Below the pieces are notes generated by a model that made no database searches, was not told where the DNA came from, and saw only the letters and a list, made by a program, of their open reading frames with translations. The translations under genes were made by a program, and so were the position numbers. Below, piece after piece: positions 10,307-64,000 of a stretch of 64,000 bases of DNA (position 1 is its first letter; each line of letters begins with the position of its first letter). The stretch is from an uncultured Polyangiales bacterium (GTDB lineage Bacteria; Myxococcota_A; Polyangia; Polyangiales; GCA-016699535), in assembly GCA_964640175.1 (NCBI GenBank), contig CAZXFW010000001.1:160460-224459 (forward strand), written 5' to 3'.

Positions 10307-11653
10307 ATGAGCGCACTGTGGGAAGATGCGTTAAACACTCTACGAAGTCGGCTATCCCCGGAGAACTTCGAGACCTGGCTAAGCCCCATCGAATGCCGGA
10401 ACATCGAGCAACACACCCTGCACTTGGCCATTCCGAACAGCTTCTACGCGGAATGGATTGGCAGTCATTATCTTCCGCTTATTTTGGACACCATTCAGGC
10501 CCAACAAGGCGGTGTCCCCTACACCGTTCAGTGGACTGTGGACGAGTCGTTGCAGCCACCCACGCAATCATCCCCCACGGTACCCTCGGTAAGCCCAAGC
10601 CCTGCTCGCGTGACTTCTGTTCCTAAGGCACACTCGGGGCTCAATCCTAAGTACAGCTTTGATAACTTTGTTGTAGGTCCATCCAACCAACTCGCCTATG
10701 CCGCATGCATGTCTGCGGCTTCTAAGAGTGGCAAGCATGGCAATCCTTTGTTTATTTACGGTGGTGTGGGGTTAGGTAAAACTCATCTGGTCAATGCCGT
10801 AGGACACCGTTTTCTGGAACGTGAAGCCCGTTCACGTGTGCTTTATTTGTCCGCCGAATGTTTTACGAATGAGTTCATCTGGTCGCTGCAAAATGGCAAA
10901 ATGGACGATTTTCGGAATCGATACCGTAATCATTGCGATCTGTTGCTCATGGACGATATTCAGTTCCTTGCAGGAAGAGAGCAAACTCAAGAAGAATTTT
11001 TTCATACCTTTAACGCCCTTTATCATCTGGATCGACAGATTGTGGTCACCAGCGATGTTCCTCCTAAACAGATTCCAGGGATGCAAGAGCGGCTCATCAG
11101 TCGGTTTCAATGGGGCCTTGTCGCCGACATCCAAGCCCCCGAGCTCGACACGCGTATTGCGATTCTTCGCGCCAAAGCAGAGCAAGAACGTATTGAGCTT
11201 AGTAATGACGTAGCTCTGTTTTTAGCCCAAGCCATCCAAAGTAACGTGCGAGAACTTGAAGGCATCCTTCTTAGACTGGCTGTTAAGGCCGATCTGATGC
11301 AACGTCGTATCGACCTGGACTTTTCTAAAGAAGCGCTGCGGTCTGTGCTGCCTTGTCCTGATCAAGCCACCACCGTTGAGGACATTCAGCGTGCAGCCTG
11401 TGAATATTTCGGGATTAAAATCGCTGACATCAAGTCTCACCGACGTCACCGCGCCGTAGCGATGCCTCGAATGATCGCCATGTACCTCTGTCGACAACGT
11501 CTTGGCACAAGCTACCCCGAACTAGGAGACCGATTTGGTGGTAAAGACCACACAACTGTCATGAGCGCTGTGCGTAAAATCTCTTCCATCGTGGGAGACG
11601 ACTCCACCGTTCGTGAGGCTGTTCAATCCATTGAACGCAAACTTGGCTTGTGA
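10307..11653 (+). CDS. dnaA: chromosomal replication initiator DnaA
   Basis: Canonical N-terminus MSALWEDALNTLRSRLSPENFETWL, Walker A GGVGLGKTHL, and the C-terminal DNA-binding signature HTTVMSAVRKI. The ORF-track start at 10250 would overlap the DnaA boxes, so ATG 10307 is preferred. Confidence 0.95.
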   Translation: MSALWEDALNTLRSRLSPENFETWLSPIECRNIEQHTLHLAIPNSFYAEWIGSHYLPLILDTIQAQQGGVPYTVQWTVDESLQPPTQSSPTVPSVSPSPARVTSVPKAHSGLNPKYSFDNFVVGPSNQLAYAACMSAASKSGKHGNPLFIYGGVGLGKTHLVNAVGHRFLEREARSRVLYLSAECFTNEFIWSLQNGKMDDFRNRYRNHCDLLLMDDIQFLAGREQTQEEFFHTFNALYHLDRQIVVTSDVPPKQIPGMQERLISRFQWGLVADIQAPELDTRIAILRAKAEQERIELSNDVALFLAQAIQSNVRELEGILLRLAVKADLMQRRIDLDFSKEALRSVLPCPDQATTVEDIQRAACEYFGIKIADIKSHRRHRAVAMPRMIAMYLCRQRLGTSYPELGDRFGGKDHTTVMSAVRKISSIVGDDSTVREAVQSIERKLGL

Positions 11654-11870
11654 ATAGTTTGGTGGATAACCCTGGGGAATACGTGCTCATAACTCTTTTA
11701 TGGATTTCATTCACAACTTACCCCACCTCGAATCCACAAAGGCTTGTTCCTTAATTAACTAAGAAACAAAACTAGTTGCAAACCTTTTTCCCCAATTCAC
11801 AGTTTCTACGACGACTATTGATTTAAATTAAAAGGTATCTGATCTATAGAAGCAAAAGGGATAAGTTCTC
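11654..11870. other. candidate oriC segment (dnaA-dnaN spacer)
   Basis: 217-bp non-coding spacer with GGTGGATAA (11661-11669, 8/9 DnaA box), GAATCCACA (11730-11738, 7/9) and an AT-rich stretch at about 11810-11850 (ATTGATTTAAATTAAAAGGTATCTGATCTATAG). Confidence 0.45.
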
Positions 11871-13013
11871 ATGGAGTTCATCATAAGCAAACACAGCTTG
11901 CTACGAGGGTTGAACCGAACACATACGGTTGCCGATCGCAAAAGCTCGATGCCTATCCTTTCGAACATACTGCTCACTGTTCAAGGACCCGGTAAGCTCG
12001 AATTATCGTCAACAGATTTGTACCTCAGCGTGCAATCTCAGGTGGAAGCTGACGTCAAAAAAGGCGGCTCCATTGCCGTTTCGTCACGCACGCTTTACGA
12101 AATCGTCAAGAACTTACCAGATGCTGATATCCGTTGGCAGGTAACGGAAAACCATTCGTCTCAGCTTCAGTGCGGTAAGGTGAAATACAAGCTTCCTTGC
12201 CTCTCTGGCGAAGACTTTCCAACGTTACCAAGTCCTGGGAATGCCAAGTTTACAGAAGTCTCTACAGAGGCCTTATTGGAGCTTATCGGACTAACTCAGT
12301 ACGCCATGTCCCATGATGACACACGTCCTCATTTGGCGGGGGCATTGTTTGAAGGTGATGGCAATGTCATCCGAATGGTGGCAACGGATGGGCATCGCTT
12401 GTCAAAAGCTGAGTGTGCTCATAGCAGTGCCAAGGAACAATTAAACTTTTCAATGCTAATCCCGGCAAAAGGCATTACTGAGCTTAAACGCTTGATTGAA
12501 GACACAGGAGCCTCTCGTGGAAACAAATCCGAAGAAGGAGCTGCTTCAAGCGTGGAAATCGTCAAGGTTGGCAATAGCGCGTTTTTCCGACGAGGCGACG
12601 TTCAGCTAAGTGTAAAACTTTCTGAAGAGCAGTTTCCTCCCTACAACAAGGTTATTCCACAGTCACAGCAGCGTGAGATTGTAGCGCTGCGTACATCGTT
12701 GACAGAGGCACTCAAACGCATCAGTTTGGTGGCTTCTGACAAGAGTGGAGGGGTTCGGCTTAATATCAGCGCGGGGACCCTTCAAATCACTAGCGAAAAC
12801 CCAGATGTGGGTGAAGGCAGTGAAGAGTTAAGTGTGGATTTTGCAGGAGAGCCTATCGTTGTTGGATTTAATGCACGATACATGATTGATGTGCTTGGTG
12901 CGCTCAAATCAGACGAAGTGAAGCTTAGTTTAGGTGGAGAGTTGGATCCTGGCGTCCTTCGTTCCGTAAGTGACGCCAACTTTGTTGGGGTCATTATGCC
13001 GATGCGGATCTAA
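11871..13013 (+). CDS. dnaN: DNA polymerase III beta sliding clamp
   Basis: 380 aa in the expected position after dnaA. Conserved blocks: LSNILL, ATDGHRL, and C-terminal MPMRI. Confidence 0.95.
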   Translation: MEFIISKHSLLRGLNRTHTVADRKSSMPILSNILLTVQGPGKLELSSTDLYLSVQSQVEADVKKGGSIAVSSRTLYEIVKNLPDADIRWQVTENHSSQLQCGKVKYKLPCLSGEDFPTLPSPGNAKFTEVSTEALLELIGLTQYAMSHDDTRPHLAGALFEGDGNVIRMVATDGHRLSKAECAHSSAKEQLNFSMLIPAKGITELKRLIEDTGASRGNKSEEGAASSVEIVKVGNSAFFRRGDVQLSVKLSEEQFPPYNKVIPQSQQREIVALRTSLTEALKRISLVASDKSGGVRLNISAGTLQITSENPDVGEGSEELSVDFAGEPIVVGFNARYMIDVLGALKSDEVKLSLGGELDPGVLRSVSDANFVGVIMPMRI

Positions 13014-51781: not shown

Positions 51782-52549
51782 TCACTTTGAGGATTGCCAG
51801 ATAAACTCAGGTGGCTTTCCTGCAACCACTTGGGTTTCGATTGCGCGTGCCGCTTGGCTGCCTGGTTCAAAACGCACCACAGGACATGTAGAGCCTGTAC
51901 AGTTTTTTGCCTCAGCGATCGCGTCAAAGTCCACATCGAGCAGCCATGATGCGGGATCAACCTGCACAAGAAGATGATCTCCCATGTGGATCGCATGCTC
52001 AAATGTCACTGCGTCGCTACCGCTTCGCACAACAGGTATGCCCTGTTCTGTCGCTTCCTCTTGCTGAAAAACCAGCTCGGCGACAAATGGGATCGTGGTT
52101 TGATCCAGCACTGCCTTGCCCACCAGCCGTAACGAGTTGTTACCCAGCACTTGCGCTGCGTCCGTCACGAGAGGCTCTGACTGGGTGAGCAATGAAACAA
52201 ACCCAAGATCGTACATCCAGGAACGAACGAAACCCGAGATGGCATTCATTTCGCCCGCAGGTACCGGTATTGGATCGAGTGTGTTGACGATGGTAGCGCT
52301 TGTCCATTCGGCTTGCGCCGTCTCGCACAGCTCGCCCGCTTGCACTCCCGCACAAAGATAGAGCGGACCAAAAACAAGCCAGGCCTGATCAAGCTCAGTC
52401 TGCCAACCATTCCGGCCCACGACCGGTGCATCTTGCTGCACGCCGCTTACCGAAAGCGAAATACCAACACGCTCCTGACCGGTGTCAACGCAGCCAACCC
52501 AGCCAGGAACGAATGCAAACAGCAAGGCTACTTGGACCACGTACTTCAT
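51782..52549 (-). CDS. lipoprotein, distant member of the DGW-lipoprotein family of this island
   Basis: Lipobox GWVGC. NGWQTELDQAWLVFGPLYL resembles DGWQVRFESYIAVLGDIHL of the 55224 gene. Start overlaps the stop of the TonB-dependent receptor gene by 4 nt. Confidence 0.5.
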   Translation of the reverse strand: MKYVVQVALLFAFVPGWVGCVDTGQERVGISLSVSGVQQDAPVVGRNGWQTELDQAWLVFGPLYLCAGVQAGELCETAQAEWTSATIVNTLDPIPVPAGEMNAISGFVRSWMYDLGFVSLLTQSEPLVTDAAQVLGNNSLRLVGKAVLDQTTIPFVAELVFQQEEATEQGIPVVRSGSDAVTFEHAIHMGDHLLVQVDPASWLLDVDFDAIAEAKNCTGSTCPVVRFEPGSQAARAIETQVVAGKPPEFIWQSSK

Positions 52550-55122
52550 AGGCGGATCTCCAGGGTGGCCATGATCGTACGCGGCGCGCCTGCAGAAATA
52601 TGGCGGGCCGGCACTCGTGACGGCATGCCACTCGGATTCCAGTTCGAAACAAAGTTGTATTCGAGGGCAGCATACCGATCGTCAAACAGATTAAAAATCT
52701 CTAGTCCCAGCTCAACGTTACGCCAGCCAACACCTACGGAGGCGTCAAACAGAGAGACCACCGACGCAAAATCGCCGTGCGGTAGCGGTCGAGACGACAA
52801 CAACGAGTAGCCTATGCCTGCACGGCCCCGCAGATCTGCTGCGTACACATCTCTCACTAAACGGCCCTTGGCCCCCAAATCTAAACGCAACACCAAGGGC
52901 GGTATGTAGGGCAGATTCTGCCCCTCTTTGAATGCAGGTTGAGGATTTTGAGCCGTCGCTGGAGGCGGTTCTAGAAGCTCTGCATCCACGTAAGTAATAG
53001 ACGCTGCACCCAATAGCCATGGGTACGGTTGTGTTTTGGCGTAAAGCACCGTGCCTGCCCGGCGCGTCTCGCCGATGCGTTCGGCGCGCCCTTCTGAAGC
53101 ATCAAAAGCAATGTCATCGGATAGCCACGTGTAAAAGCCGGTAAGAGAAAGCTCCAAGCGCTCATCCCAGCGCATGCGCACACCCACATCGCCAGAGCGT
53201 ACCTTGGTAAAAGGCGCTTGTTCACCGTCCTCAAGCGTACGTGCTTGAGGTGAACGATATCCTTCACCGTAGGCGCCAAGCAACGACACCCACTTTTGTA
53301 ACTTGATCTCGGTACTCGCACGTGGCCCCCAGGCGAGGCCAAACGACGTGCGTTCAAAGCCCGTGATATAGGTATCGTCTGGCCGCGTAAGCGGTGCAAG
53401 ATTGCCCAGCTTGTCATTCACATCATAGTAAAGTGCATCCGCCCGCAACCCCGCGCGCACGTTCACAAAAGGTGTCAATGACCAATCCAGATCGCCCCAC
53501 ATGCCAAGGTCTACCCCCTGAATCTGCGCATCCACACGCTTATCCCAGATCTGGTTGTGTACCGCTGCATCGAGCAGGGCTTGGGTTTGATCAATAGAGT
53601 CCATACGTCCGGTGAGACCAAGCTCCAGTGTCCCCTGCGCCCATGACGCGGGCCGATACGGCGCCGTACGGTAGCGGCCGTGCAGGCCAAGCGATGTTGT
53701 GCGATTGTTTTGCGCGATCAAATCGCCGCGACCCGATACATTCTCCAGAGTCTGGGAACGCTGGGTAAATCCAGTGAAGTTTTCGTGAAGCTGAAAGTTA
53801 TCGTAACTGAGCCATGCACCCGCCTCGGCGTTATCGCCCGCTGTGCCGCGGTACTCCGCAGTCAACCCCGCCATGAGGCGCCCGCTCAGTGCATTTTGCT
53901 TCTGGGCTGTGGGCAATGGATACACATCGTAGAATCCCACGCTGCCTGCATCGATGTCGTCTTTTCGCAACACACCGGCCATGTCTGCCCGCGAACCATA
54001 GAGCACGCCAAGGGCACGATAGCGCCAACGTTTGGAACCAAACGTATGCTGGAAAATGCCGCTTGCACTTTGACCCGCGCGATTTTGTCCAAAGCCATCG
54101 GTACGGCGGTATTGCACGGCACCGAACGACTCCGAAGATAAGTCCGGTGGAGCCCACAACGCGAGTTGACGAAACGTGTTAAACGACCCGTAGCCTGACT
54201 TAAGCAAGACGCCGCGCTCTTTCACACCAAGATCAAAATCTACCGTTCCTGCGACGGCAAAATCACCTTGGCGCGGATCGTACACACCTTCGGTGATGCG
54301 TAGGTTTTGAACAACTTCGGACATCAAAAACCCGAGATCGGCATAGCCTTGGCTGTGAATATGAGACGGCAAATTGATCGGAAGTCCACCGACACGCAAT
54401 TCCAAATCCTGACCATGCTCCGCATCGAAGCCACGCAGCATGATATTGTGCGCAACGGCATCGCCCTCTGAGCGCGCGATATAGACTCCGGGAGCTGAGC
54501 GCAAAATTTCTGCGCCTTCGGCATGGGGCGCAGCTCGCAACACCTCGCTATCAATCCGAAAATGACTGCTGCTGCGATTCTCGGTGCGCAGTGTAGTGGG
54601 ATCGACTCGAGCGGTGGCGCTGTACGCCTTCTTTTTTGGCACCGGCTTGAGATGCGGATCGGCGACCATGTGCGTGGGCGGATGTTCATCGCGTGCTGCA
54701 CCTGAAGCGCCGGGCTCTGTTGTCGCCAAGTCAAACAGCGGTAGCTCAAAATGCACGGCCACATGAACGCGGCTGGCGACTGGCTGATCACCCTGGCGAG
54801 CAGGCGCAAACTTCCAACTGCGCAGAGCTTGCAGCGCGGCACGATCAAAATCGGCGCCTGCCGAATGCTCCACCTTGGTAGCCATGATCTGCCCCGTTTC
54901 ACTGAGAACCACCTCAATCATCACCGTGGGGTGCAATCCCTCCTTGATCCGTGCAGGCGGATACTCAGGTGGCGGCGCCTCTAACAAGCGGGGCGGCTCC
55001 AAAGCCAGCTTATCTACGCTAGGCGAAGGAGCTTGCTGTGCCATTGCCCCCTGAGGTAGCCAAGGGCCAATCGTGATGCTCAGAAGCAGCCAACCGTGCA
55101 GTTTTGGACGGCAATTCCACAT
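52546..55122 (-). CDS. TonB-dependent receptor-like outer-membrane protein with N-terminal TonB_C domain
   Basis: The N-terminus after the signal peptide carries a TonB C-terminal-type domain (PEYPPARIKEGLHPTVMIEVVLSETGQIMATKVEHSAGADFDRAALQALRSWKFAPA). This is followed by a plug-like region (ILRSAPGVYIARSEGDAVAHNIMLRGFD) and an approximately 600-aa beta-rich barrel. Confidence 0.75.
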   Translation of the reverse strand: MWNCRPKLHGWLLLSITIGPWLPQGAMAQQAPSPSVDKLALEPPRLLEAPPPEYPPARIKEGLHPTVMIEVVLSETGQIMATKVEHSAGADFDRAALQALRSWKFAPARQGDQPVASRVHVAVHFELPLFDLATTEPGASGAARDEHPPTHMVADPHLKPVPKKKAYSATARVDPTTLRTENRSSSHFRIDSEVLRAAPHAEGAEILRSAPGVYIARSEGDAVAHNIMLRGFDAEHGQDLELRVGGLPINLPSHIHSQGYADLGFLMSEVVQNLRITEGVYDPRQGDFAVAGTVDFDLGVKERGVLLKSGYGSFNTFRQLALWAPPDLSSESFGAVQYRRTDGFGQNRAGQSASGIFQHTFGSKRWRYRALGVLYGSRADMAGVLRKDDIDAGSVGFYDVYPLPTAQKQNALSGRLMAGLTAEYRGTAGDNAEAGAWLSYDNFQLHENFTGFTQRSQTLENVSGRGDLIAQNNRTTSLGLHGRYRTAPYRPASWAQGTLELGLTGRMDSIDQTQALLDAAVHNQIWDKRVDAQIQGVDLGMWGDLDWSLTPFVNVRAGLRADALYYDVNDKLGNLAPLTRPDDTYITGFERTSFGLAWGPRASTEIKLQKWVSLLGAYGEGYRSPQARTLEDGEQAPFTKVRSGDVGVRMRWDERLELSLTGFYTWLSDDIAFDASEGRAERIGETRRAGTVLYAKTQPYPWLLGAASITYVDAELLEPPPATAQNPQPAFKEGQNLPYIPPLVLRLDLGAKGRLVRDVYAADLRGRAGIGYSLLSSRPLPHGDFASVVSLFDASVGVGWRNVELGLEIFNLFDDRYAALEYNFVSNWNPSGMPSRVPARHISAGAPRTIMATLEIRL

Positions 55123-55157: not shown

Positions 55158-55174
55158 TTGCAACGTACTTGCAT
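55158..55174. promoter_or_regulatory. TTGCAA-N5-TTGCAT operator (copy b), divergent promoter region
   Basis: TTGCAACGTACTTGCAT, in the 101-bp spacer between the receptor gene (55122, minus strand) and the lipoprotein gene (55224, plus strand). Confidence 0.5.
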
Positions 55175-55223
55175 TAGTAATTCAATTGCGTTAACTTACG
55201 GCTCCATGTCGAATAGGGAGACG

Positions 55224-56192
55224 ATGATGGACCGTATTAAATGGATAACGCTCTGGTCTTTGCTTGGGATTTTGGCGTGTGGCGACGATTCCGGCGGGGG
55301 CACGCTGACCGTTGCGATTGAAGCAGAGGACTCCATCACCAGCGGCCTCGATCCAGGAGCGGAAGTCGAAAACATTCAAGATGGCTGGCAGGTGCGTTTT
55401 GAGTCTTACATCGCAGTGCTTGGAGACATCCACTTAAACTTTGCAACCGATGCCACCACGGAAGCGCACGCAGAGCAACTGTATGCCGTGGATTTGACTT
55501 CCGTGCCTCAAAATGGATTAGCACTATGGACAGTTCCGGCTTTGAAGGCAGGAGACTGGAATTTCAGTTATGCCTTAGGTGATGGCAGTCTCGCTGAGCC
55601 GCATGCAAGCGTGAGCGAAGAGGCCTTTGCGCAGATCAGCGAGCAGGATTTGACGTATATGATCACCGGAACGCTTTCTAAAACGGATGGTGAGTCATGT
55701 CCGCCAAACAGCCTCGCCGAGCCCGGCTCTGCCACACCCGTTGGCACCAACGCTGGCGGCGATCACTGCTACACCAACGCGGCTGTGAAGTTTAGTATTT
55801 CACTCAATGCCGAGACCCACTACACCTTCTGCGGCCTGGACGATGCAAAGAGCTTCAATATGCCCACGGCTGGCACGCAACACGTGGCCATCACCATCCA
55901 TGGCGACCACATGTTTTTCAATGGTTTTCCTGAGGGCGACGAGGGCGGCACCTTGCGCCTTGCACAGTGGCTCGCGGATTGTGATTTGAATCTCGACGGA
56001 CAGGTAGATATGGATGAACTTGCGCAGATTGCGCCCGCAGACTTGTCCGAGCTTGATGACCGCTACCAATTGGGAGGCTCCAGCATCGAGCTCGACACCA
56101 TGCAAGACTATGTAAAGGCACAACTTAAAACGCAGGGGCACATCCAGGGCGAAGGCGAATGCGCCATCGATGGCCAATCCCACCACCACTAA
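55224..56192 (+). CDS. lipoprotein of the DGW family with EF-hand-like loop and His-rich C-terminus
   Basis: Lipobox GILAC. Clear paralogue of the 63376 ORF: DGWQVRFESYIAVLGD vs DGWEVRFDKYVAVVGD; SCPPNSLAEPGS vs TCPPPDVAEPGS. Has a DLNLDGQVDMDE EF-hand-type loop and ends GQSHHH. Start 55224 or 55227. Confidence 0.55.
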   Translation: MMDRIKWITLWSLLGILACGDDSGGGTLTVAIEAEDSITSGLDPGAEVENIQDGWQVRFESYIAVLGDIHLNFATDATTEAHAEQLYAVDLTSVPQNGLALWTVPALKAGDWNFSYALGDGSLAEPHASVSEEAFAQISEQDLTYMITGTLSKTDGESCPPNSLAEPGSATPVGTNAGGDHCYTNAAVKFSISLNAETHYTFCGLDDAKSFNMPTAGTQHVAITIHGDHMFFNGFPEGDEGGTLRLAQWLADCDLNLDGQVDMDELAQIAPADLSELDDRYQLGGSSIELDTMQDYVKAQLKTQGHIQGEGECAIDGQSHHH

Positions 56193-56246: not shown

Positions 56247-56687
56247 CTACGTTCTTCGGCGGCATGAGGCACATTTGCCGGTGATCTCGAGTTCGTTATC
56301 TTTGAACGCCTTGCTCCACTTGGGATCTTGGAGTGTCTGAAGAATCTCTGGAGGTACGCACTCAACTTGTCCACATACGCGGCACGCAAAATGCGGATGG
56401 TGGTGCAAGTCCTCAGACTCCCCCACGTATTGGTAGCGGACGATTCCTCCAATGCGGCTGGCAACACGTGCCAAGTTGACCTCTACCAAGTCAGTTAAGT
56501 TTCGATACAACGTAGACTGATCCCAGTCGTCCGTTCCTAGGTGTGTCGCGACGTCCCTCTGTGACAATGGTTTTTTCGCTTCTTTGAGCAATCGAAGCAC
56601 CGCTACTCGGGGCGCGGTAGCGCGCAGCCCCTTGTCCCGTATCTTTTCTCGGAACGCCTCTTTTTTGCTTCCTGTCGATGGCACCAC
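56247..56687 (-). CDS. Fur-family metalloregulator (metal specificity unknown)
   Basis: Winged-helix region (GLRATAPRVAVLRLL), an HHHPHF metal-site stretch, and CRVC...CASC structural-Zn cysteines. GTG 56687 is preferred because the ORF-track N-terminus (to 56735) would be encoded by the operator repeats. Confidence 0.8.
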   Translation of the reverse strand: MVPSTGSKKEAFREKIRDKGLRATAPRVAVLRLLKEAKKPLSQRDVATHLGTDDWDQSTLYRNLTDLVEVNLARVASRIGGIVRYQYVGESEDLHHHPHFACRVCGQVECVPPEILQTLQDPKWSKAFKDNELEITGKCASCRRRT

Positions 56688-56699
56688 AACAGAAGCATT

Positions 56700-56724
56700 A
56701 TTGCATTTGCAAACCAAATGCAAT
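56700..56724. promoter_or_regulatory. operator (copy a) in the fur-family gene promoter
   Basis: ATTGCATTTG-CAAAC-CAAATGCAAT is a perfect 10-bp inverted repeat. It contains TTGCAA-ACCAA-ATGCAA (56707-56723). Confidence 0.5.
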
Positions 56725-56806
56725 GCAATTTTCACGCCAGAATTGATTAATCATGCCGAGGAGCCGTGTTTAATGCAATCAATATGCTTTTGCTATCTAA
56801 AGCCTA

Positions 56807-56823
56807 TTGCAATCTACTTGCAT
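56807..56823. promoter_or_regulatory. TTGCAA-N5-TTGCAT operator (copy c)
   Basis: TTGCAATCTACTTGCAT followed by a TATGCT -10-like hexamer. It lies about 18 bp upstream of ATG 56841. Confidence 0.55.
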
Positions 56824-56840: not shown

Positions 56841-57185
56841 ATGAAGCAACACGCCGGCCCTCTCAGCATAGTCATAGTCGCGATTCTGTTCTTTACGGCT
56901 TGTGAAGCACCGCAGGTTGTTCACGATGACCTAGCATTCGATCCAGCGGCGATTGAAAATATTGAATTGCCACCCGAGGTCATCAAAGTGATCTGTGGTG
57001 TGGCTGGTGGCACGATTCTTGTTGGCTTTGTGGGCTGGCTCCTAGAGAACTACGGAGAAGGCGTGGTTGCTGAGTATCTTTCCGTAAGGCATGCAGTGGG
57101 ATCAGATGCATACTGGCGTGCTAGGGCGGCATTTTTGCGGACCTCGACGATGACGCGCTGGACCTCATTAAACCAACTTTACTAG
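56841..57185 (+). CDS. small lipoprotein/membrane protein, possibly the 5' part of a frameshifted longer gene
   Basis: Lipobox LFFTAC, then a TM helix (VICGVAGGTILVGFVGWLL). The downstream ORF's frame is already open from 57125. Confidence 0.4.
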   Translation: MKQHAGPLSIVIVAILFFTACEAPQVVHDDLAFDPAAIENIELPPEVIKVICGVAGGTILVGFVGWLLENYGEGVVAEYLSVRHAVGSDAYWRARAAFLRTSTMTRWTSLNQLY

Positions 57186-57220: not shown

Positions 57221-58405
57221 GTGGGCGGCCAATCCTTTCTTGATCATCACGCGCATTTCCACAGCGAGGATGACGGGCCTGATCACCACCATCATCACCA
57301 CGATTCCGATCCGCTGGGTGTGCCCGAACGTAACACCGTGACCAGCTATCTTGGGGCGATGCGCCAGCAGCGGCCGGATTTTCTGCAAGGCTTTAGCGAT
57401 GCCGAAGTCATCGCGCTTGTGGAAATTCGGCGAGGCGCAACTGCCACCGTTGCGTATCAGGATTTGTCTGCCGCGTTGACGCAGTTGGCGGTGCGCAGCG
57501 GTTTTGCTGAGCAAAGCTTGATACATTTGTCCCCCACAGCCAATGATGCTTTGGTGATCAACGGTCTGATGAGCGAACTACATGACAGCGTTCATCATGC
57601 TGCCGATGCGATTGATGCAAAGCGAAGCCGATCTGCCATGCTTCGTGAGGTGTTGTTCTCCGTCGCCACGGGCTTTTTCGATTTGCTTTACAACCATCTT
57701 CCAACTTGGCTGTTTGGACCGAAATCAAGGCCGGTGATGCGTTCAACCCGCGTGGCCAACTTTTTCTTCCACTGGTTTCCTTTCATTCCAGGAGCAGCGA
57801 CTGGAGCCCTTGGTTTTCTGAAATGTCCCCAATTTCAACCCACTGTCACAGCCGACCAACTTTGCGTCGCAGCCGGAGAACTTGCGGGGGTTCCGGTCGC
57901 CTACCACACTGCATTTCACGAAAGTTACTTTGCAGAAGCCAAAAATCAGAGCCTTTACATCAATTTGCAAGGCCCCTCAGAAAGCGCTTCTATCGTGGAA
58001 CGTTTTGAGCTCACCCCTGCCCACGAAAACGATCGGCTCATTTGGCGATACCGCTCACCGAGTTGTGATGAGCAAAGTTCAACGGAAACCTGCCATGAGC
58101 TGGAGGCCAGAGGGGTATCCATTCGAGATATCTTAAGGGAGAGTTCGGATCTGAGCGAAGACGCAATTCAAGCATTGCCTCAAGAATACCGATTGCAAAT
58201 CAGTCATCGCTATTCGGGTGAGTTTGTAGAGCAAACGAACGAAAACATGGTTTCCGAATGTCTTGAGATTCCCGGATCGGAAGATCTCGAACGCGATTGT
58301 TCGCCCTTTTCGCAGGGACACGTATGCATCCCGGGCACACCCAGCGCAGAACAATGCTGTAACTACTGCCATGCGCTCCCCGGCGTAGGCGGTCACTGCC
58401 ACTGA
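57221..58405 (+). CDS. His-rich / C-terminally Cys-rich protein, unknown function
   Basis: N-terminus DHHAHFHSEDDGPDHHHHHHDSD. C-terminus CSPFSQGHVCIPGTPSAEQCCNYCHALPGVGGHCH. GTG start with no signal peptide of its own. Confidence 0.5.
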   Translation: MGGQSFLDHHAHFHSEDDGPDHHHHHHDSDPLGVPERNTVTSYLGAMRQQRPDFLQGFSDAEVIALVEIRRGATATVAYQDLSAALTQLAVRSGFAEQSLIHLSPTANDALVINGLMSELHDSVHHAADAIDAKRSRSAMLREVLFSVATGFFDLLYNHLPTWLFGPKSRPVMRSTRVANFFFHWFPFIPGAATGALGFLKCPQFQPTVTADQLCVAAGELAGVPVAYHTAFHESYFAEAKNQSLYINLQGPSESASIVERFELTPAHENDRLIWRYRSPSCDEQSSTETCHELEARGVSIRDILRESSDLSEDAIQALPQEYRLQISHRYSGEFVEQTNENMVSECLEIPGSEDLERDCSPFSQGHVCIPGTPSAEQCCNYCHALPGVGGHCH

Positions 58406-58469: not shown

Positions 58470-59171
58470 GTGCAGTGCGCCGCTGAAAACGCATCGCCCG
58501 AGAAACGCACCGCCTATTTCAACGCCTTGAAATCAGAAATGCTGGCGCAGCTCCGCTCCGCAGACAAACTCGGCCACGAGCAACAAAAAATCTATGGAAG
58601 TCCTGATTTCTCCGGTTACGATGCAAACTTCGAAGAGCAGGCCCGTACCGACTTTCATATCCTGAAAAGCGCAGCCAGTCGCCAAAAAAACCTTGATGAG
58701 CTCATTCAAACGCATAGCCTCAAAGCACAGCAAGCAAGTTTTGTGCAGCAAAACATCAATTTCTATTTGTTTTCTGAAAATGGGCGAAGTGAATGGCAAA
58801 ACTATCGTTTCGCAGCGGAGCGAAGCATCATCGAATCGCTCAGCGCCCTCTACGATGTTGCGGTGTTGGACCAGGGGAAACAGTTGGTCTGGGACGGAAC
58901 TTTAAACGAGGGGCATGGCGGCATTGTGCGCGAAACGTTTACTGGAAGCTGCGGCCAGAGCCACCACTGCTTGGATTTGCAGCGTGATATTCGCTACGTA
59001 CTCGACTCACCGATAGACGCCGAACATGTCCGCTTCAGCCGTCTCGCACACATCTCGCGTCACATTCAAAGCGAAGTGGAGCAACTAAAAATTGTGGCGG
59101 GTGAAGAAGATCTCTACTTTCCCATATTGCTCGCGAAAATTTCGTGGAACAAACGACTCGGCAATGGATGA
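58470..59171 (+). CDS. hypothetical protein (possibly a frameshifted lipoprotein)
   Basis: 233-aa ORF with a GTG start and no family motif. A lipoprotein signal peptide is encoded out of frame just upstream (58418-58486). Confidence 0.4.
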   Translation: MQCAAENASPEKRTAYFNALKSEMLAQLRSADKLGHEQQKIYGSPDFSGYDANFEEQARTDFHILKSAASRQKNLDELIQTHSLKAQQASFVQQNINFYLFSENGRSEWQNYRFAAERSIIESLSALYDVAVLDQGKQLVWDGTLNEGHGGIVRETFTGSCGQSHHCLDLQRDIRYVLDSPIDAEHVRFSRLAHISRHIQSEVEQLKIVAGEEDLYFPILLAKISWNKRLGNG

Positions 59172-59358
59172 AAAAAGCGCGGCCTTACTTGCAAGTTACG
59201 ATTCCGTGCGTATTCGGATACTCGAGCACGCACCAGAGTTTGCTGCCGTCGATTGTGTGATTAGTTCAGAAACCACCTGGCAAGAACGTATAGACATCAT
59301 TGAGTCTCATGTGTGGACAGCCGTTGACGGCCTGCTTCTCGGCGTGGACGATCTATGA
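59164..59358 (+). CDS. small hypothetical protein (64 aa)
   Basis: ATG 59164 overlaps the upstream stop (ATGGATGA), which suggests translational coupling. No recognisable motif. Confidence 0.3.
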   Translation: MDEKSAALLASYDSVRIRILEHAPEFAAVDCVISSETTWQERIDIIESHVWTAVDGLLLGVDDL

Positions 59359-59370
59359 CGCATCCATGCA

Positions 59371-60555
59371 TTACGAGGTGGGGTAAAGGCCCAAAGGGGC
59401 CACAGGCTGGATAAACTTTCCCTGCCAAAGCAAAGTAAGAAACTCTTGCCAAGGATAAACCACGATGTTGTCATGGGTGCGTCGCATCTCACTGTCACGT
59501 GATACAAGCACATAATCACGAACCAGCTGTTCCTCCTTGAGCGCGCGCAGTCCTTTTAGGTGTTTGTCCGTCGCGAGGTTGGTTGATTTGATCTCAATGG
59601 CCATCTGCTTGCCGAGCACCAGATCGACTTCAAACTGGGAGGTGCTTCGCCAATACTGCATCTCTAAATCAACGCGAGCGTAACTCAAAAAGGCACGCAC
59701 TTCGTTGATAATAAAGTGCTCGAATGCTCGGCCAAAAAGCTCCGAACCGTCTAAGATCGCGCCCCGTTTGGCCAGGGTGTTCGTGATGCCGACATCAAAA
59801 AGATAAACTTTCTTGCGGGTGATCGCTTTTCGTTTCAGGGTGTATCGAAACGGAGCCAGTGCATATGCAATCAAGGTGTCTTCCGCGATTTGCAGATAGT
59901 TATGCAGGGTGCGCGCTGGAACACCGCAATCACTCGCCCAGGATTCGTAGTTGACTTCTTCACCATTACTTAGGGCGAGCGTATCAAGAAATCGAGCATA
60001 GTTCGGTAGGTTTCGCACGAGGCCTTCGGCCTGTATCTCTTCGCGCAAATAGAGATTGGCATAGCTGCGTAACTCCTCGTGAGGCACCCGACTTGTATAG
60101 ATCGCCGGAAGCCCTCCTCGGTTGAGATAGCGCAGCAGATCGAAGTCACTAATCTCCAAGAAGCTCAGCGGAAAAAGAGAAGCCCAGAAAGCACGTCCTG
60201 CGAGTAAATTCGCCGCACCTCGGCGTAGTTTACGCGCGCTGCTGCCAGTGAACAAAAAGCGTCTGCCCTCAAGCTCGATCAGGCGGTGCGCTTCGTCGAG
60301 GAGTTGCGGCAGTTTTTGGATCTCGTCAATGACAAGCAGCTGCTTCGGATCAGGATTCTGTTCCTGAAGCAGCTTGGGTCGACGCACTAATGACGCGAAG
60401 ATTTCGGCATCCAGTAAGTCGTATACACGGGCGTCGCTCAACTGCTGTCGAATGAGGGTGGTCTTACCTGTGGCTCGCGGCCCAAATAGAAAAAAAGACT
60501 TTAGTTTCAATAGGTTGGATAAATCCAACGCGCGCGTATAGATGATATTCCGCAT
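59371..60555 (-). CDS. AAA+ ATPase of the AAA_14/DUF4143 type
   Basis: Walker A FGPRATGKTTL, Walker B LLVIDEIQ. The C-terminal half resembles the DUF4143 region (YWRSTSQFEVDLVL). Confidence 0.75.
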   Translation of the reverse strand: MRNIIYTRALDLSNLLKLKSFFLFGPRATGKTTLIRQQLSDARVYDLLDAEIFASLVRRPKLLQEQNPDPKQLLVIDEIQKLPQLLDEAHRLIELEGRRFLFTGSSARKLRRGAANLLAGRAFWASLFPLSFLEISDFDLLRYLNRGGLPAIYTSRVPHEELRSYANLYLREEIQAEGLVRNLPNYARFLDTLALSNGEEVNYESWASDCGVPARTLHNYLQIAEDTLIAYALAPFRYTLKRKAITRKKVYLFDVGITNTLAKRGAILDGSELFGRAFEHFIINEVRAFLSYARVDLEMQYWRSTSQFEVDLVLGKQMAIEIKSTNLATDKHLKGLRALKEEQLVRDYVLVSRDSEMRRTHDNIVVYPWQEFLTLLWQGKFIQPVAPLGLYPTS

Positions 60556-60655
60556 GTCTATGACAGAATATCATGATAATCCGCCATAGAAAAGCGATCT
60601 GTCTTATCCTCGCAGAAGCTATTGCAGTCTGCATACTAAACCAGATATGACGCTA

Positions 60656-60672
60656 TTGCAATCCACTTGCAT
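60656..60672. promoter_or_regulatory. TTGCAA-N5-TTGCAT operator (copy d)
   Basis: TTGCAATCCACTTGCAT followed by TATGCT. The 27-nt block 60653-60679 is identical to 56804-56830 except for one base. Confidence 0.55.
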
Positions 60673-60704
60673 TATGCTAGTAGTAGCCGCAAAGAGTGCC
60701 CTGT

Positions 60705-61622
60705 ATGAGTTTTTTTCGATTTCTGATCGCCGCAATAACCCTTTGTGTTCTAGGTTGCGCAGCACAAACACAACAGAACCCCATCGAAAGCGATGGCAAC
60801 GGACAACAACTATGTGGCGCAGTCGAGGATATCATCGTCCATGGGTGCGCGGGCCACGGCAGAGCCGCTTTAACCAATCCCAGCTTTCCTCCGCAGGTTT
60901 TTCCGATTCCCAACGCAGACATCGGGCTTTCCGACGCTCTTCCGATCGGGGCTGCACCGGAAGTCGCGCGTCTGGGACACACGGTATTCAAGCTCGAACT
61001 ATCCGATGGTCAACCCTTCTACGTTCTGCCAGAAGCGCCGATAGGCCACGAGTACGAAACGCAGCTCTGGAGCATTTTTGTGGGTGCCTACACAAGCGAC
61101 GGTGCCGTAGTCACGCCTCTACTGGAGATAAAAAGAAACGGAGAATGGGTAAACGCAGAGTATTCCATTGCCCCGCTCGGCGGGGGAGGTGCGGCTTGCC
61201 AAGGCATGTTCTCACACGAACAATCCTTTTTGCTGCAACGGTTACTGCCCTACGAAGTAAGGGTTTTGGCTCCAGGAGCAGACACCATCTTCGTACTCTT
61301 CGATCCGTCTTGGCAGCTCTACTTCGACCAAACCAATGGATATCGTTGCCAAAGTGTCGTCGAGGAGATGCTCACATCGATCGCTACTCCCGCCCTGGAA
61401 TGCGGAGCGGAGCCCGATTACAAGGTGATCGATGGAGTTTGCATGCCAAGTTGCGGCCAAGCTTCGCGCAACTATTACGGTGCGAACCACCTACGCGGCG
61501 ACGATACGGCAGAAGAACAGCGCGCGTATTTAGCCTGTGTTGATTCGGGCATAGCCACGGGAGATTCCCTAGACCTCGGCAACACCCACGACTGCACAAA
61601 ATGCATTCTCGTATGGCCCTAA
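60705..61622 (+). CDS. H-x-C-x2-H lipoprotein, paralogue 1
   Basis: Lipobox VLGC. VHGCAGH motif followed by GHTVFKLEL. 305 aa from ATG 60705. Confidence 0.55.
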   Translation: MSFFRFLIAAITLCVLGCAAQTQQNPIESDGNGQQLCGAVEDIIVHGCAGHGRAALTNPSFPPQVFPIPNADIGLSDALPIGAAPEVARLGHTVFKLELSDGQPFYVLPEAPIGHEYETQLWSIFVGAYTSDGAVVTPLLEIKRNGEWVNAEYSIAPLGGGGAACQGMFSHEQSFLLQRLLPYEVRVLAPGADTIFVLFDPSWQLYFDQTNGYRCQSVVEEMLTSIATPALECGAEPDYKVIDGVCMPSCGQASRNYYGANHLRGDDTAEEQRAYLACVDSGIATGDSLDLGNTHDCTKCILVWP

Positions 61623-62710
61623 CACCACGATTCATTAGCGCCTTGCTATTTTTCTTCTCGGCCTGCGCAGTTAGCAGCTCTGATGAATTGGATAGCCAAC
61701 AGAGCTCCCTGGCAAGCTTCTGCTCCGGCGGCGTTAGCCTTGCAGCTCCAAGCTGCTCCGCACTTGATGCCTCGCATCAAATTCATATCTGTGGGCATGA
61801 TTCATTGGCGCTGGATCCCGAGGCTGAAGCTTCTGGATGGATTTTACGAGGGGATGGTGTTCGGTCGCCTAAGCCTCATACGGTCTACAAACTGACCCAG
61901 GACAACACCATGTCCTTCGCTCAGAGTTTCATATCCGAAGTCGCGATTGTCACCAAAAATCTCAGTCTGTCTGTACCGAACGCCACTGCCATCTATCAGG
62001 GGCCCAATGGTTGCACAGAGGGATTCTTCACTCAAACCTCCAGCTATTTTGTGGGCGCCGGCAGCGAACTGGACTTGAGGCTTTCGATTGAAAATCCTGA
62101 GGAGGACGGTTTTCTGTTGATCGATCCGGAAACAGTCGTGCAAGAAGTCAAGCTTGACGGCGATTGTGACGGTACGGGGGGCGCTTCTTTCTGGATCGCC
62201 AATCCAGAGGCGCGTGGCTGCAAAGGGAGCGTCGGAACGGATTCGGCACCCGATCCCAACGACGCGGATCCTTGCACGCCGAATATCAGTGCGGCCCCAT
62301 CATGCGCTCCAGAGCAGCCGAAGGACGGCTCCGAGAGTGAGGAGGAGTCAACCGAAGAGGATGAACATCCAAATCAAAGTACCTATTCCGTTTGTGACCT
62401 AAATACCTTTCCATCCAATTGCTATCTTCGAAACATTGATGGAGCGGCTCGCGCGACTGATGCACGCGATGCCGATGCCAGTGCTCAGCCCCTCGCACTC
62501 GCATGCACCTACGATGCCATCGCTGCCGTCGGTGGAGAGTACCCTGGGCTTGATAAAGGTGAGCGCTGGCGTTGCGAACAGGATCAAACACAAAATCGCT
62601 TGTGGTGGGCTGGACCCTATTGCGAGCAGGGTTACCAAGAATGCCCGTATTACCAACGAACCACTAAAGCTGTTCGTTGTTGGCCACAGAATCAGGCTTG
62701 CCCGGAATAA
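61613..62710 (+). CDS. H-x-C-x-H lipoprotein, paralogue 2 (with acidic Cys-rich C-terminal extension)
   Basis: Lipobox FFSAC. IHICGHD motif followed by PHTVYKLT. Start overlaps the upstream stop. Confidence 0.55.
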   Translation: MALTPRFISALLFFFSACAVSSSDELDSQQSSLASFCSGGVSLAAPSCSALDASHQIHICGHDSLALDPEAEASGWILRGDGVRSPKPHTVYKLTQDNTMSFAQSFISEVAIVTKNLSLSVPNATAIYQGPNGCTEGFFTQTSSYFVGAGSELDLRLSIENPEEDGFLLIDPETVVQEVKLDGDCDGTGGASFWIANPEARGCKGSVGTDSAPDPNDADPCTPNISAAPSCAPEQPKDGSESEEESTEEDEHPNQSTYSVCDLNTFPSNCYLRNIDGAARATDARDADASAQPLALACTYDAIAAVGGEYPGLDKGERWRCEQDQTQNRLWWAGPYCEQGYQECPYYQRTTKAVRCWPQNQACPE

Positions 62711-62714
62711 AACG

Positions 62715-63383
62715 ATGCACATCACCCAACGCACAATGATGTCATGGTTCCTAGTGTTTATGTCACTCGTGGGCTGTGCCGCCGACACAGGGAGTAAGGA
62801 ACCCAACACGCCGCAATCCGGCGACGGAGACGCCGGTACGAAAGACGACACCGGCCCCAACCTTCCGCAATTCACTCTCGAAGAGGACCCCTGCGCGTCT
62901 ATGCTTATCCCAGGAGCAGTGGACCACGCATGCATTCATGCGCTGCGAGGTCCCTATTCGACCGTAAAGGCCAGTGGCACCTTTGACACAGATGTTAACA
63001 TCTCCGAACGCCATACGTTTTTCACCATTGAACTCTCAGAAACTGAAGGTGGTTATCACGGATACCTGCGGTTTCGCCATGAACAGCCCGTCGCCTTCCC
63101 CAATTATCCGCAACCCTACTTCATGCTGGGCACAGGAAACGAAAACTTACAATTGTTCGTACTTGATTCGGCTCAAAATCCAAGCACTGCGCGCTATGCA
63201 GATAGGGTTAGCCCCAGAAACCCTCAGTGCGGTTTGCGCTATGCCTTTGTCTACCCCCTTGCTACCGCCCTCACACATACCTTTTACCTCTACTCACCCA
63301 CGCGTTCCGAAGTGACCTTGGTTGCAGAGCACCTTTTCGACTACGTGGATGCCCAGTGGGTGCAGGAGTGTGCGGATGAATAG
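62715..63383 (+). CDS. H-x-C-x-H lipoprotein, paralogue 3
   Basis: Lipobox SLVGC. DHACIHA motif followed by RHTFFTIEL. ATG 62715 lies just after the upstream stop; the ORF-track start at 62436 lies inside the previous gene. Confidence 0.55.
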   Translation: MHITQRTMMSWFLVFMSLVGCAADTGSKEPNTPQSGDGDAGTKDDTGPNLPQFTLEEDPCASMLIPGAVDHACIHALRGPYSTVKASGTFDTDVNISERHTFFTIELSETEGGYHGYLRFRHEQPVAFPNYPQPYFMLGTGNENLQLFVLDSAQNPSTARYADRVSPRNPQCGLRYAFVYPLATALTHTFYLYSPTRSEVTLVAEHLFDYVDAQWVQECADE

Positions 63384-64000
63384 CCCCGCCGTGCGATTTC
63401 TTACTTGGTTTGTCGCTGCTTTTTGCGCTCTTGCCTTTGCTTGCACAGAGGAGGATGCCGGATCCATCTCGATCCTCTTGGAGCCTGAAACCACCATCTT
63501 GGATGGAATCTTGCCTGGCGATGACGTCGAGCATATTCGTGACGGCTGGGAGGTACGGTTTGACAAATACGTCGCCGTGGTTGGGGATGTGTTGCTGAAG
63601 CGTTCCAACGACCAGCAAGTCACTGCGCAGGACCGCACTATTTATGCAGTTGACCTTCATACCTTGCCGGCTAACGGGATAACTCTTTGGAGAATCGAGG
63701 ACCTGGCGTCGGTGCGTTGGGACTTTACCTATGCGCTTTCGGGAGGCATTCATGGTGCGTTGCAACACGAGAGCGTGAGCGATAGCGACTTTCACGACAT
63801 CGTGGATCACGATTGGAGCTACCTTATTGAAGGAAGCATAATCAACGTACAAGGTGTAACGTGTCCTCCGCCTGATGTAGCCGAACCTGGTTCTATTCAA
63901 AGCACCGAGGAACGCCGCGGTGTCCCTTGCTACCCGAATCCCGAAATCAGTTTTCGCTTTGCACTAACGGCAGAAACGCTCTACGGTCCGTGCGAAATCG
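63376..64000 (+). CDS. DGW-family lipoprotein, paralogue of 55224-56192 (3' end outside window)
   Basis: Absent from the ORF track because it has no stop in the window. ATG 63376 overlaps the upstream stop (ATGAATAG). Lipobox LAFAC. I read it through to base 64000 without a stop. Confidence 0.6.
   Translation, partial: MNSPAVRFLTWFVAAFCALAFACTEEDAGSISILLEPETTILDGILPGDDVEHIRDGWEVRFDKYVAVVGDVLLKRSNDQQVTAQDRTIYAVDLHTLPANGITLWRIEDLASVRWDFTYALSGGIHGALQHESVSDSDFHDIVDHDWSYLIEGSIINVQGVTCPPPDVAEPGSIQSTEERRGVPCYPNPEISFRFALTAETLYGPCEI

Follow-up and report, generated by a model that had tools for sequence, protein, structure and literature searches.

Three consecutive lipoprotein genes with a shared His/Cys signature, candidates for metal handling, in a box-bearing island of a Polyangiales bacterium

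Towards the right end of a 64,000-nucleotide (nt) stretch of DNA from an uncultured Polyangiales bacterium (GenBank assembly GCA_964640175.1, contig CAZXFW010000001.1, positions 160,460 to 224,459; the whole stretch is called the window here), three consecutive genes, named A, B and C in the following, encode lipoproteins with the same pattern of histidines and cysteines. What do these proteins do, and does the pattern form a metal site, as had been proposed in a sequence-only reading of this DNA? We consider it about an even bet (probability roughly 0.5) that A, B and C are extracytoplasmic, disulfide-stabilised lipoproteins with a tri-His metal site, which are controlled by a Fur-family repressor and serve as accessory proteins in metal capture and hand-off for TonB-dependent uptake. 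Metal-regulated envelope binding proteins are known as a functional kind, to which A, B and C would add a new family that is very rare.

The signature common to the three proteins is C-x(8-10)-H-x-C-x(1,2)-H ... H-T-[VF]-[FY]. It is made up of C37, H46-G-C48-A-G-H51 and H92-T-V-F in A, of C52, H62-I-C64-G-H66 and H93-T-V-Y in B, and of C60, H71-A-C73-I-H75 and H100-T-F-F in C (numbered from ATG 62715); two more Cys, A165/B138/C172 and A215/B189/C219, are also common to all three. In a six-frame translation of the window the full collinear pattern has exactly three matches, which are A, B and C, and composition-preserving shuffles of A, B and C reproduced it 0, 1 and 0 times per 200,000, respectively (at most 5e-6). 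The cluster HxCx(1,2)H alone is frequent, with 18 six-frame matches and an occurrence in ~1% of the shuffles. The peptides quoted in the sequence-only reading are correct, and the signature that it described in each protein exceeds chance by these shuffles. Its HT motif is present as well, while the gap that separates this motif from the last His of the cluster amounts to 25-41 residues and not to 30-45 as stated there. A literature search on the 'HxCxH' motif found no papers.

The description of A, B and C as tandem, coupled lipoprotein genes is borne out by the coordinates of the open reading frames (ORFs; Table 1), by the overlapping or adjacent starts and by the lipoboxes, which were called by the pattern [LVIF]-x-[GAS]-C and are matched by all of A, B, C and the orthologues. 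A and B overlap by 22 nt (10 nt if B starts at the alternative ATG 61613), and C starts 4 nt past the stop codon of B. The three genes are consecutive, but they do not form a closed three-gene set, as the operon runs on into a fourth, unrelated lipoprotein gene, D. The result is a row of four translationally coupled genes on the plus strand, A-B-C-D, each with a signal peptide ending in a lipobox. Assemblies of six independent sequencing runs yielded this locus with 100% identity; simple promoter and terminator scans were uninformative. All three proteins share the order of lipobox, linker and a domain of 150-190 amino acids (aa), to which members of the A and B subfamilies add a Cys-rich tail that often closes with CxxC. 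The C-terminal ends are ...CTKCILVWP in A, ...WPQNQACPE in B and ...WVQECADE in C.

In an L-INS-i/MAFFT alignment of eight family members, the H, C and H of the cluster, the later H and a mid-domain Cys fall into invariant columns, in agreement with the claim that the motifs occupy equivalent positions. Only seven residues, of which three are His and two are Cys, do not vary in this alignment. The H-x-C-x(1,2)-H cluster supplies two of the His and one Cys, the 'HT' motif supplies the third His, and the mid-domain Cys, a Phe and a Leu make up the rest. The Thr does not belong to the conserved signature, contrary to the conserved 'His-Thr' that had been suggested, since orthologues carry HH, HI or HS at this place. 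The first Cys (C1) and the C-terminal Cys (C4) are found in seven of the eight sequences and are jointly missing from the eighth, a paralogue named E. Because C1 and C4 were lost together, C1-C4 and C2-C3 look like disulfide pairs, and two such disulfides probably staple the domain. The first Cys, which the sequence-only reading had counted into its metal site, is probably not a ligand. A metal role of the proteins gains support from their context, namely the Fur-family operator-like boxes described below and the genes that these boxes precede.

An AlphaFold2 (AF2) model of the C core was built from a six-sequence alignment, with a predicted local distance difference test score (pLDDT) of 73 and a predicted template modelling score (pTM) of 0.72. 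The model places C6, H17, C19 and H21 on an N-terminal helix (model residues 5-24), which is followed by a beta-sandwich, where H46 opens strand 46-52, and by a C-terminal helix that carries C164. At positions i and i+4, H17 and H21 would lie on one face of the helix, while the motif Cys C19, two residues from each His, would point to the opposite face, which fits a staple to the sandwich. The A/B/C domain is predicted to comprise ~165 aa with an N-terminal helix packed on a beta-sandwich. A Foldseek search of the C model against the PDB gave generic jelly-roll matches only (template modelling score < 0.45), with the phiX174 G protein, the ColG collagen-binding domain and CUB, and a PDB sequence search with the family profile gave no match.

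That A, B and C are paralogues does not follow from sequence statistics alone. Pairwise BLASTP between them yielded E-values of 0.16-0.74, which are not significant, the Smith-Waterman z-scores of the three pairs against shuffles were 1.5, 1.7 and -0.6, and default MAFFT of the three full-length proteins misaligns the motif. Between subfamily profiles, hhalign gave collinear alignments with P of 0.002-0.04. Hidden Markov models (HMMs) built with one subfamily left out were not significant, the best left-out match being B' with E 0.036 among 2,590 ORFs. A common origin is very likely, if not formally proven, given the collinear motif beyond chance, the Cys pattern, the shared architecture, the adjacency of the genes and the single-column positions of the motif in the eight-member alignment.

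The family is not a recognisable one, as had been noted: searches of Pfam and NCBIfam (E up to 1) and of PADLOC (E up to 0.01) returned no family for A, B or C. Word-indexed homologue searches with C, A and the eight-sequence profile found only the queries themselves or members already known, and a scan of metagenome contigs with the A subfamily had no matches. An exhaustive profile HMM search of 1.84 billion representative proteins yielded an orthologue of A (P0004, E 2e-11) and an orthologue of C (P0006, E 8.5e-4), and altogether family members were found in only three organisms. P0006 sits on a 32-kb contig (L008), where the gene order of the window recurs with A' of 310 aa, B' of 426 aa and C' of 228 aa, and where the fourth paralogue, E (181 aa), is encoded nearby. 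The orthologues in the window and in L008 share only 29-32% identity. The same gene order in a distant organism at ~30% identity indicates that the A-B-C triplication goes back a long time and that all three copies have been retained since. At the locus of P0004 (L007), the A orthologue is followed by another lipoprotein gene.

A further match of the profile, P0005, was rejected as a relative; its E-value of 5e-6 is a sum over seven matches (profile positions 21-88) and was judged to reflect additive chance scoring on repeats. P0005 has 2220 aa with many Ig-like repeats of ~90 aa (SWHTIGTDNTIDGSF). Between C' and E, contig L008 also encodes a 393-aa orphan protein (10715-11896, minus strand) with His-rich stretches such as VDHQSHIH, which has no Pfam or NCBIfam match and no counterpart in the window.

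In the window, A, B and C belong to a 12-kb island of four transcription units, each preceded by a TTGCAA-N5-TTGCA[AT] box. Besides A-B-C-D, these units are the gene of a Fur-family regulator, the operon of the poly-His protein p394, and a TonB-dependent receptor operon paired divergently with D'. From left to right the island consists of p255 and a TonB-dependent receptor gene (minus strand), D', a Fur-family gene (minus strand), p114, p394, p233 and p64, an AAA_14/DUF4143 gene (minus strand), and A, B, C and D. TTGCAA-N5-TTGCAA with up to one mismatch occurs at four sites in the 64 kb, all of them within the island and all at promoter positions (Table 1). A 19-base form, TTGCAA-N3-ACTTGCATTA, has three matches in the window where 0.04 are expected by chance; one lies upstream of A, one upstream of p114 and the third between the receptor operon and D', which diverge from there. 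The 27-bp stretch 60653-60679 even matches the stretch upstream of the p114 gene at 26 of 27 bases.

The core TGCAA-N5-TTGCA of this box is also that of the footprinted Nur (Ni) box of Streptomyces coelicolor, tTGCaa-N5-ttGCAA (PMC2691836), and of ATGCAACnnnGTTGCAT, which was predicted as a Zur box in front of znuABC-zur of Desulfovibrio (PMC545781). The likeness to these regulons comprises the 6-5-6 layout, the half-site, the promoter location and the adjacent Fur-family gene. The targets, in contrast, are entirely different, as nikABCDE, sodF and znuABC are not in the window; the regulator is not detectably nearer to Nur or Zur than it is to Fur or PerR; and the operator function of the box is here predicted from sequence. 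The classical Fur box GATAATGATAATCATTATC has no match in the window, even with three mismatches.

As the alignment of the Fur-family regulator to solved Fur proteins begins at its residue 26, the gene more probably starts at GTG 56687 or 56684 than at GTG 56735. With either of these starts, the box at 56707-56723 would lie in the promoter of the gene, suggesting autoregulation; the ORF as called from GTG 56735 would hold its own box. The regulator is about equally distant from Fur, PerR and Zur models and structures.

The box is also found with the relatives of A, B and C. A'B'C', E and an operon with a p114/p394 fusion in L008 each have a perfect or near-perfect box upstream, and in L007 a box with two mismatches stands upstream of the A orthologue, followed by TATGCTA as in the window. 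The p114-p394 operon co-occurs with A/B/C in the window organism and in L008. The orphan protein p394 shares 48% identity over ~400 aa with a portion of an L008 protein of 549 aa (L008 3548-5197), which includes the p114 counterpart as an N-terminal fusion and conserves the C-terminal CCNYCH-x5-GGHCH. A metagenome-contig scan with p394 gave no matches.

A profile search with the D family found 14 loci (L009-L022), all in metagenome-assembled genomes (MAGs) of Myxococcota (Enhygromyxa, Polyangia, Sandaracinaceae). The module of receptor, p255 and D is present in 12 of these 14 loci, and a Fur-family gene adjoins in three; A/B/C-like ORFs were found in none of the 14. Boxes lie upstream of receptor or Fur-family genes in L012, L016 and L017. 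In addition, L012 (13835-16480) has a perfect box, TTGCAAC-AGA-GTTGCAA, ~40 bp upstream of a COG0523 (YjiA/CobW/ZigA-type) GTPase gene, which is divergent from an RcnR/CsoR-like gene and the gene of a DmeF-type Co/Ni exporter of the cation diffusion facilitator family. This boxed GTPase gene is ~5 kb from the receptor/p255/D module of the same MAG.

In the mechanism that we propose, each of A, B and C would be anchored to lipid through its N-terminal Cys and a flexible linker. The three invariant His, two from H-x-C-x(1,2)-H and one opening the next conserved strand, would form a divalent-metal site located in the periplasm or on the cell surface. When metal is plentiful, a metal-loaded Fur-family repressor would occupy the boxes; when it is scarce, the island would be derepressed, and the lipoproteins may then capture metal and act as go-betweens, delivering it to the pathway of the TonB-dependent receptor or taking it over from there. 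For the metal, Zn is our first guess, followed by Ni or Co. Clues to Zn are the boxed COG0523 gene, the poly-His tracts, the Zur-box precedent in Desulfovibrio and the analogy with ZepA discussed below. A farther-reaching version of this mechanism, which we regard as rather doubtful, takes A, B and C as a new fold family with a metal site made of a helix-borne H-x-C-x-H and a strand His, on a beta-sandwich stapled by two disulfides. The three ancient paralogues would scavenge Zn (or Ni/Co) together, in a relay or as a hetero-complex, and feed the Myxococcota-wide, so far uncharacterised receptor/p255/D module under a Zur/Nur-like repressor.

Several observations weigh against metal capture by a tri-His site. 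The C model is of only moderate confidence, an independent AF2 model of A from a two-sequence alignment failed (pLDDT 46), and family, PDB and fold searches turned up no protein of known metal site that is related by sequence or fold. The A subfamily carries HGCxxH, with one extra residue between the Cys and the second His, so the helical spacing of the two His differs among subfamilies. The invariant Cys pair could serve as ligands instead of forming a disulfide. The receptor gene is not in the A/B/C operon but 5.5 kb away on the opposite strand, with the shared box as the sole link, and in L008 there is no TonB-dependent receptor within 20 kb. The metal clues conflict, as the Nur-box precedent and the DmeF neighbour in L012 point to Ni/Co. 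None of the characterised Fur, Zur, Nur or PerR proteins is close to the Fur-family protein, so the signal could be another metal or even peroxide.

Other explanations of the locus were weighed against the same data. The His and Cys may be structural or serve another ligand, with A, B and C being envelope lipoproteins for adhesion, predation or metallophore binding that merely happen to be in the regulon. The very low overall conservation, the lack of a metal-binding homologue among the search results, the confinement of the family to three organisms, which marks it as accessory, and the generic jelly-roll fold matches to carbohydrate- or collagen-binding modules are all in line with this. We nevertheless consider it unlikely, as three invariant His among seven invariant residues at 15-35% identity are hard to explain structurally and the regulon context is metal-related throughout. 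Even less probable, in our judgement, are heme or iron lipoproteins of a classical Fur regulon, hemophore-like proteins in which two conserved His would be axial heme ligands or part of an Fe site. A Fur-family regulator beside a TonB-dependent receptor most often signals iron, the N-terminal part of the receptor is like MxcH, and its barrel weakly matches models of heme, hemoglobin and siderophore receptors. All of these receptor matches are, however, far under the family cut-offs, the operator has the Nur/predicted-Zur core and not that of the Fur box GATAATGATAATCATTATC, and both the poly-His tracts and the COG0523 GTPase gene that has a box in a relative are hallmarks of Zn or Ni rather than Fe.

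The invariance of the motif Cys, and the resemblance of His-Cys-His clusters on a beta-sandwich to blue or red copper sites, could indicate a His2Cys Cu site formed by this Cys and its flanking His, with or without the strand His, in copper chaperones or electron-transfer lipoproteins. This is very improbable. Pfam gave no cupredoxin or copper-binding match, and no cupredoxin is among the 50 best Foldseek PDB matches listed. Cupredoxin ligands follow the order Cys-x(n)-His-x(n)-Met near the C-terminus, while the A/B/C cluster is N-terminal and helical in the model, where the motif Cys, two residues from each His, faces the other side of the helix. The second invariant Cys, the sole other non-lipobox Cys kept in E, looks like a disulfide partner. 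Fur-family regulators do not usually control copper systems. We give the least credence of all to a PerR-like oxidative-stress regulon, with a peroxide-sensing regulator and A, B and C as thiol- or His-based envelope redox proteins, for which the regulator scores (nearly as high against PerR as against Fur models) and the CxxC-like motifs at the ends of A and B would speak. The island holds no peroxidase, catalase or thioredoxin-fold genes, and PerR does not typically target TonB-dependent receptors or poly-His proteins. The window box also differs from the PerR boxes given in PMC545781.

Metal capture by envelope proteins has a parallel in ZepA of Anabaena, a Zur-regulated cell-surface exoprotein with a beta-sandwich, for which a tri-His Zn site was proposed and a role in Zn uptake is experimentally supported; its three His are almost invariant, and it is sporadic and rare in bacteria (PMC10957091). 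A, B and C resemble ZepA in their location at the cell periphery, Fur-family control, beta-sandwich, three His and rarity, with the A/B/C side of this likeness being predicted from sequence or model. They are not members of the ZepA family, as both its motif and its PEP-CTERM anchor are missing. A regular-expression search found the ZepA motif H-X2-9-H-[FY]-H in none of the eight A/B/C family members, and instead of a C-terminal PEP-CTERM anchor with VPEP, transmembrane segment and basic tail, A, B and C have a predicted N-terminal lipid anchor. ZepA is also a single gene in contrast to the A/B/C triplet, and no sequence relationship was found.

ZinT and ZnuA are extracytoplasmic proteins induced on metal limitation, with His-based sites that are thought to hand metal to a transporter. 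The handing-on of captured metal by periplasmic proteins with His sites is also discussed in PMC10957091. Unlike ZinT and ZnuA, the A, B and C proteins are of other folds or families (no Pfam/NCBIfam match) and are lipoproteins with predicted disulfide-stapled domains, and no ABC importer gene is nearby. Surface lipoproteins of the TbpB/HpuA type are genetically tied to a TonB-dependent receptor, co-regulated with it by a metal-responsive repressor, and capture the ligand. A, B and C, in contrast, are encoded outside the receptor operon, whose own partners are p255 and D', and no fold or sequence similarity to TbpB/HpuA was found (Pfam, Foldseek).

To our knowledge, the metal-limitation regulons of Myxococcota are essentially unexplored. 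If A, B and C do capture metal, they would constitute a new protein family whose candidate tri-His site is compact and easy to mutate, and a second case after ZepA of a rare, lineage-restricted envelope protein recruited for trace-metal capture. The locus would further offer a candidate operator and its regulator, by which a regulon could be defined in Polyangia and Nannocystales-like genomes, and it would be linked to the receptor module with its two lipoproteins, which is conserved but uncharacterised. If the His cluster binds no metal, A, B and C would merely be fast-evolving orphan lipoproteins. The Myxococcota receptor/p255/D module with its Nur/Zur-like operator is arguably as interesting as the A/B/C trio.

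Table 1. Coordinates of genes A, B and C, of the boxes and of the other island genes in the window.
Feature	Position	Strand	Description
Gene A	60705-61622	+	305 aa, lipobox VLGC (Cys18)
A, core domain	60804-61370	+	residues 34-222
A, HGCAGH	60840-60857	+	
A, HTVF	60978-60989	+	
A, tail			residues 223-305, Cys-rich
Gene B	61601-62710	+	369 aa, lipobox FSAC (Cys22)
B, core domain	61745-62188	+	residues 49-196
B, HICGH	61784-61798	+	
B, HTVY	61877-61888	+	
B, downstream of core			acidic linker, then Cys-rich tail
Gene C	62715-63383	+	222 aa, lipobox LVGC (Cys21)
C, linker		+	~35 aa, flexible
C, core	62883-63380	+	residues 57-222
C, HACIH	62925-62939	+	
C, HTFF	63012-63023	+	
6-5-6 box TTGCAA-TCCAC-TTGCAT	60656-60672	+	32 nt upstream of gene A, 1 mismatch
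6-5-6 box	56807-56823	+	17 nt upstream of the p114-p394-p233 operon
6-5-6 box	56707-56723		just upstream of the probable true start of the Fur-family gene
6-5-6 box	55158-55174	+	divergent promoter region, TonB-dependent receptor operon / D'
Fur-family regulator gene	56247-56735	-	PF01475, E 1.3e-11
TonB-dependent receptor	52546-55122	-	TonB_C domain, plug, barrel
p255 lipoprotein	51782-52549	-	same operon as receptor
D'	55206-56192	+	lipoprotein paralogue of D, 49% identity
Gene D	63376-64000 (runs off window)	+	lipoprotein, overlaps C by 8 nt, His-rich C-terminus
p114	56841-57185	+	small lipoprotein or membrane protein
p394	57221-58405	+	poly-His N-terminus HHAHFHSEDDGPDHHHHHHD, C-terminal end CCNYCH-x5-GGHCH
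p233	58470-59171	+	gene fragment
p64	59164-59358	+	gene fragment
AAA_14/DUF4143 ATPase gene	59371-60555	-	

Of the neighbouring genes, D has a full length of 327 aa, as seen on an identical contig (L001), and hhalign of the A/B/C profile against the D-family profile showed no relationship. The D family has the invariant motifs IHGDHxFF and QGHxxGEGEC, an EF-hand-like DxDxDG loop and a C-terminus that is often His-rich; D' also ends in a His-rich tail. Neither the p255 nor the D family has a Pfam or NCBIfam annotation. The TonB_C domain of the receptor is N-terminal, and its N-terminal part resembles the myxochelin receptor MxcH. As p233 and p64 match consecutive parts of one 719-aa L008 protein, they look like a single frameshifted gene with a truncated 3' end. 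The place of the missing 3' part is occupied by the AAA_14/DUF4143 ATPase gene, whose product matches the PADLOC candidate defence family PDC-S01 (E 3e-57).

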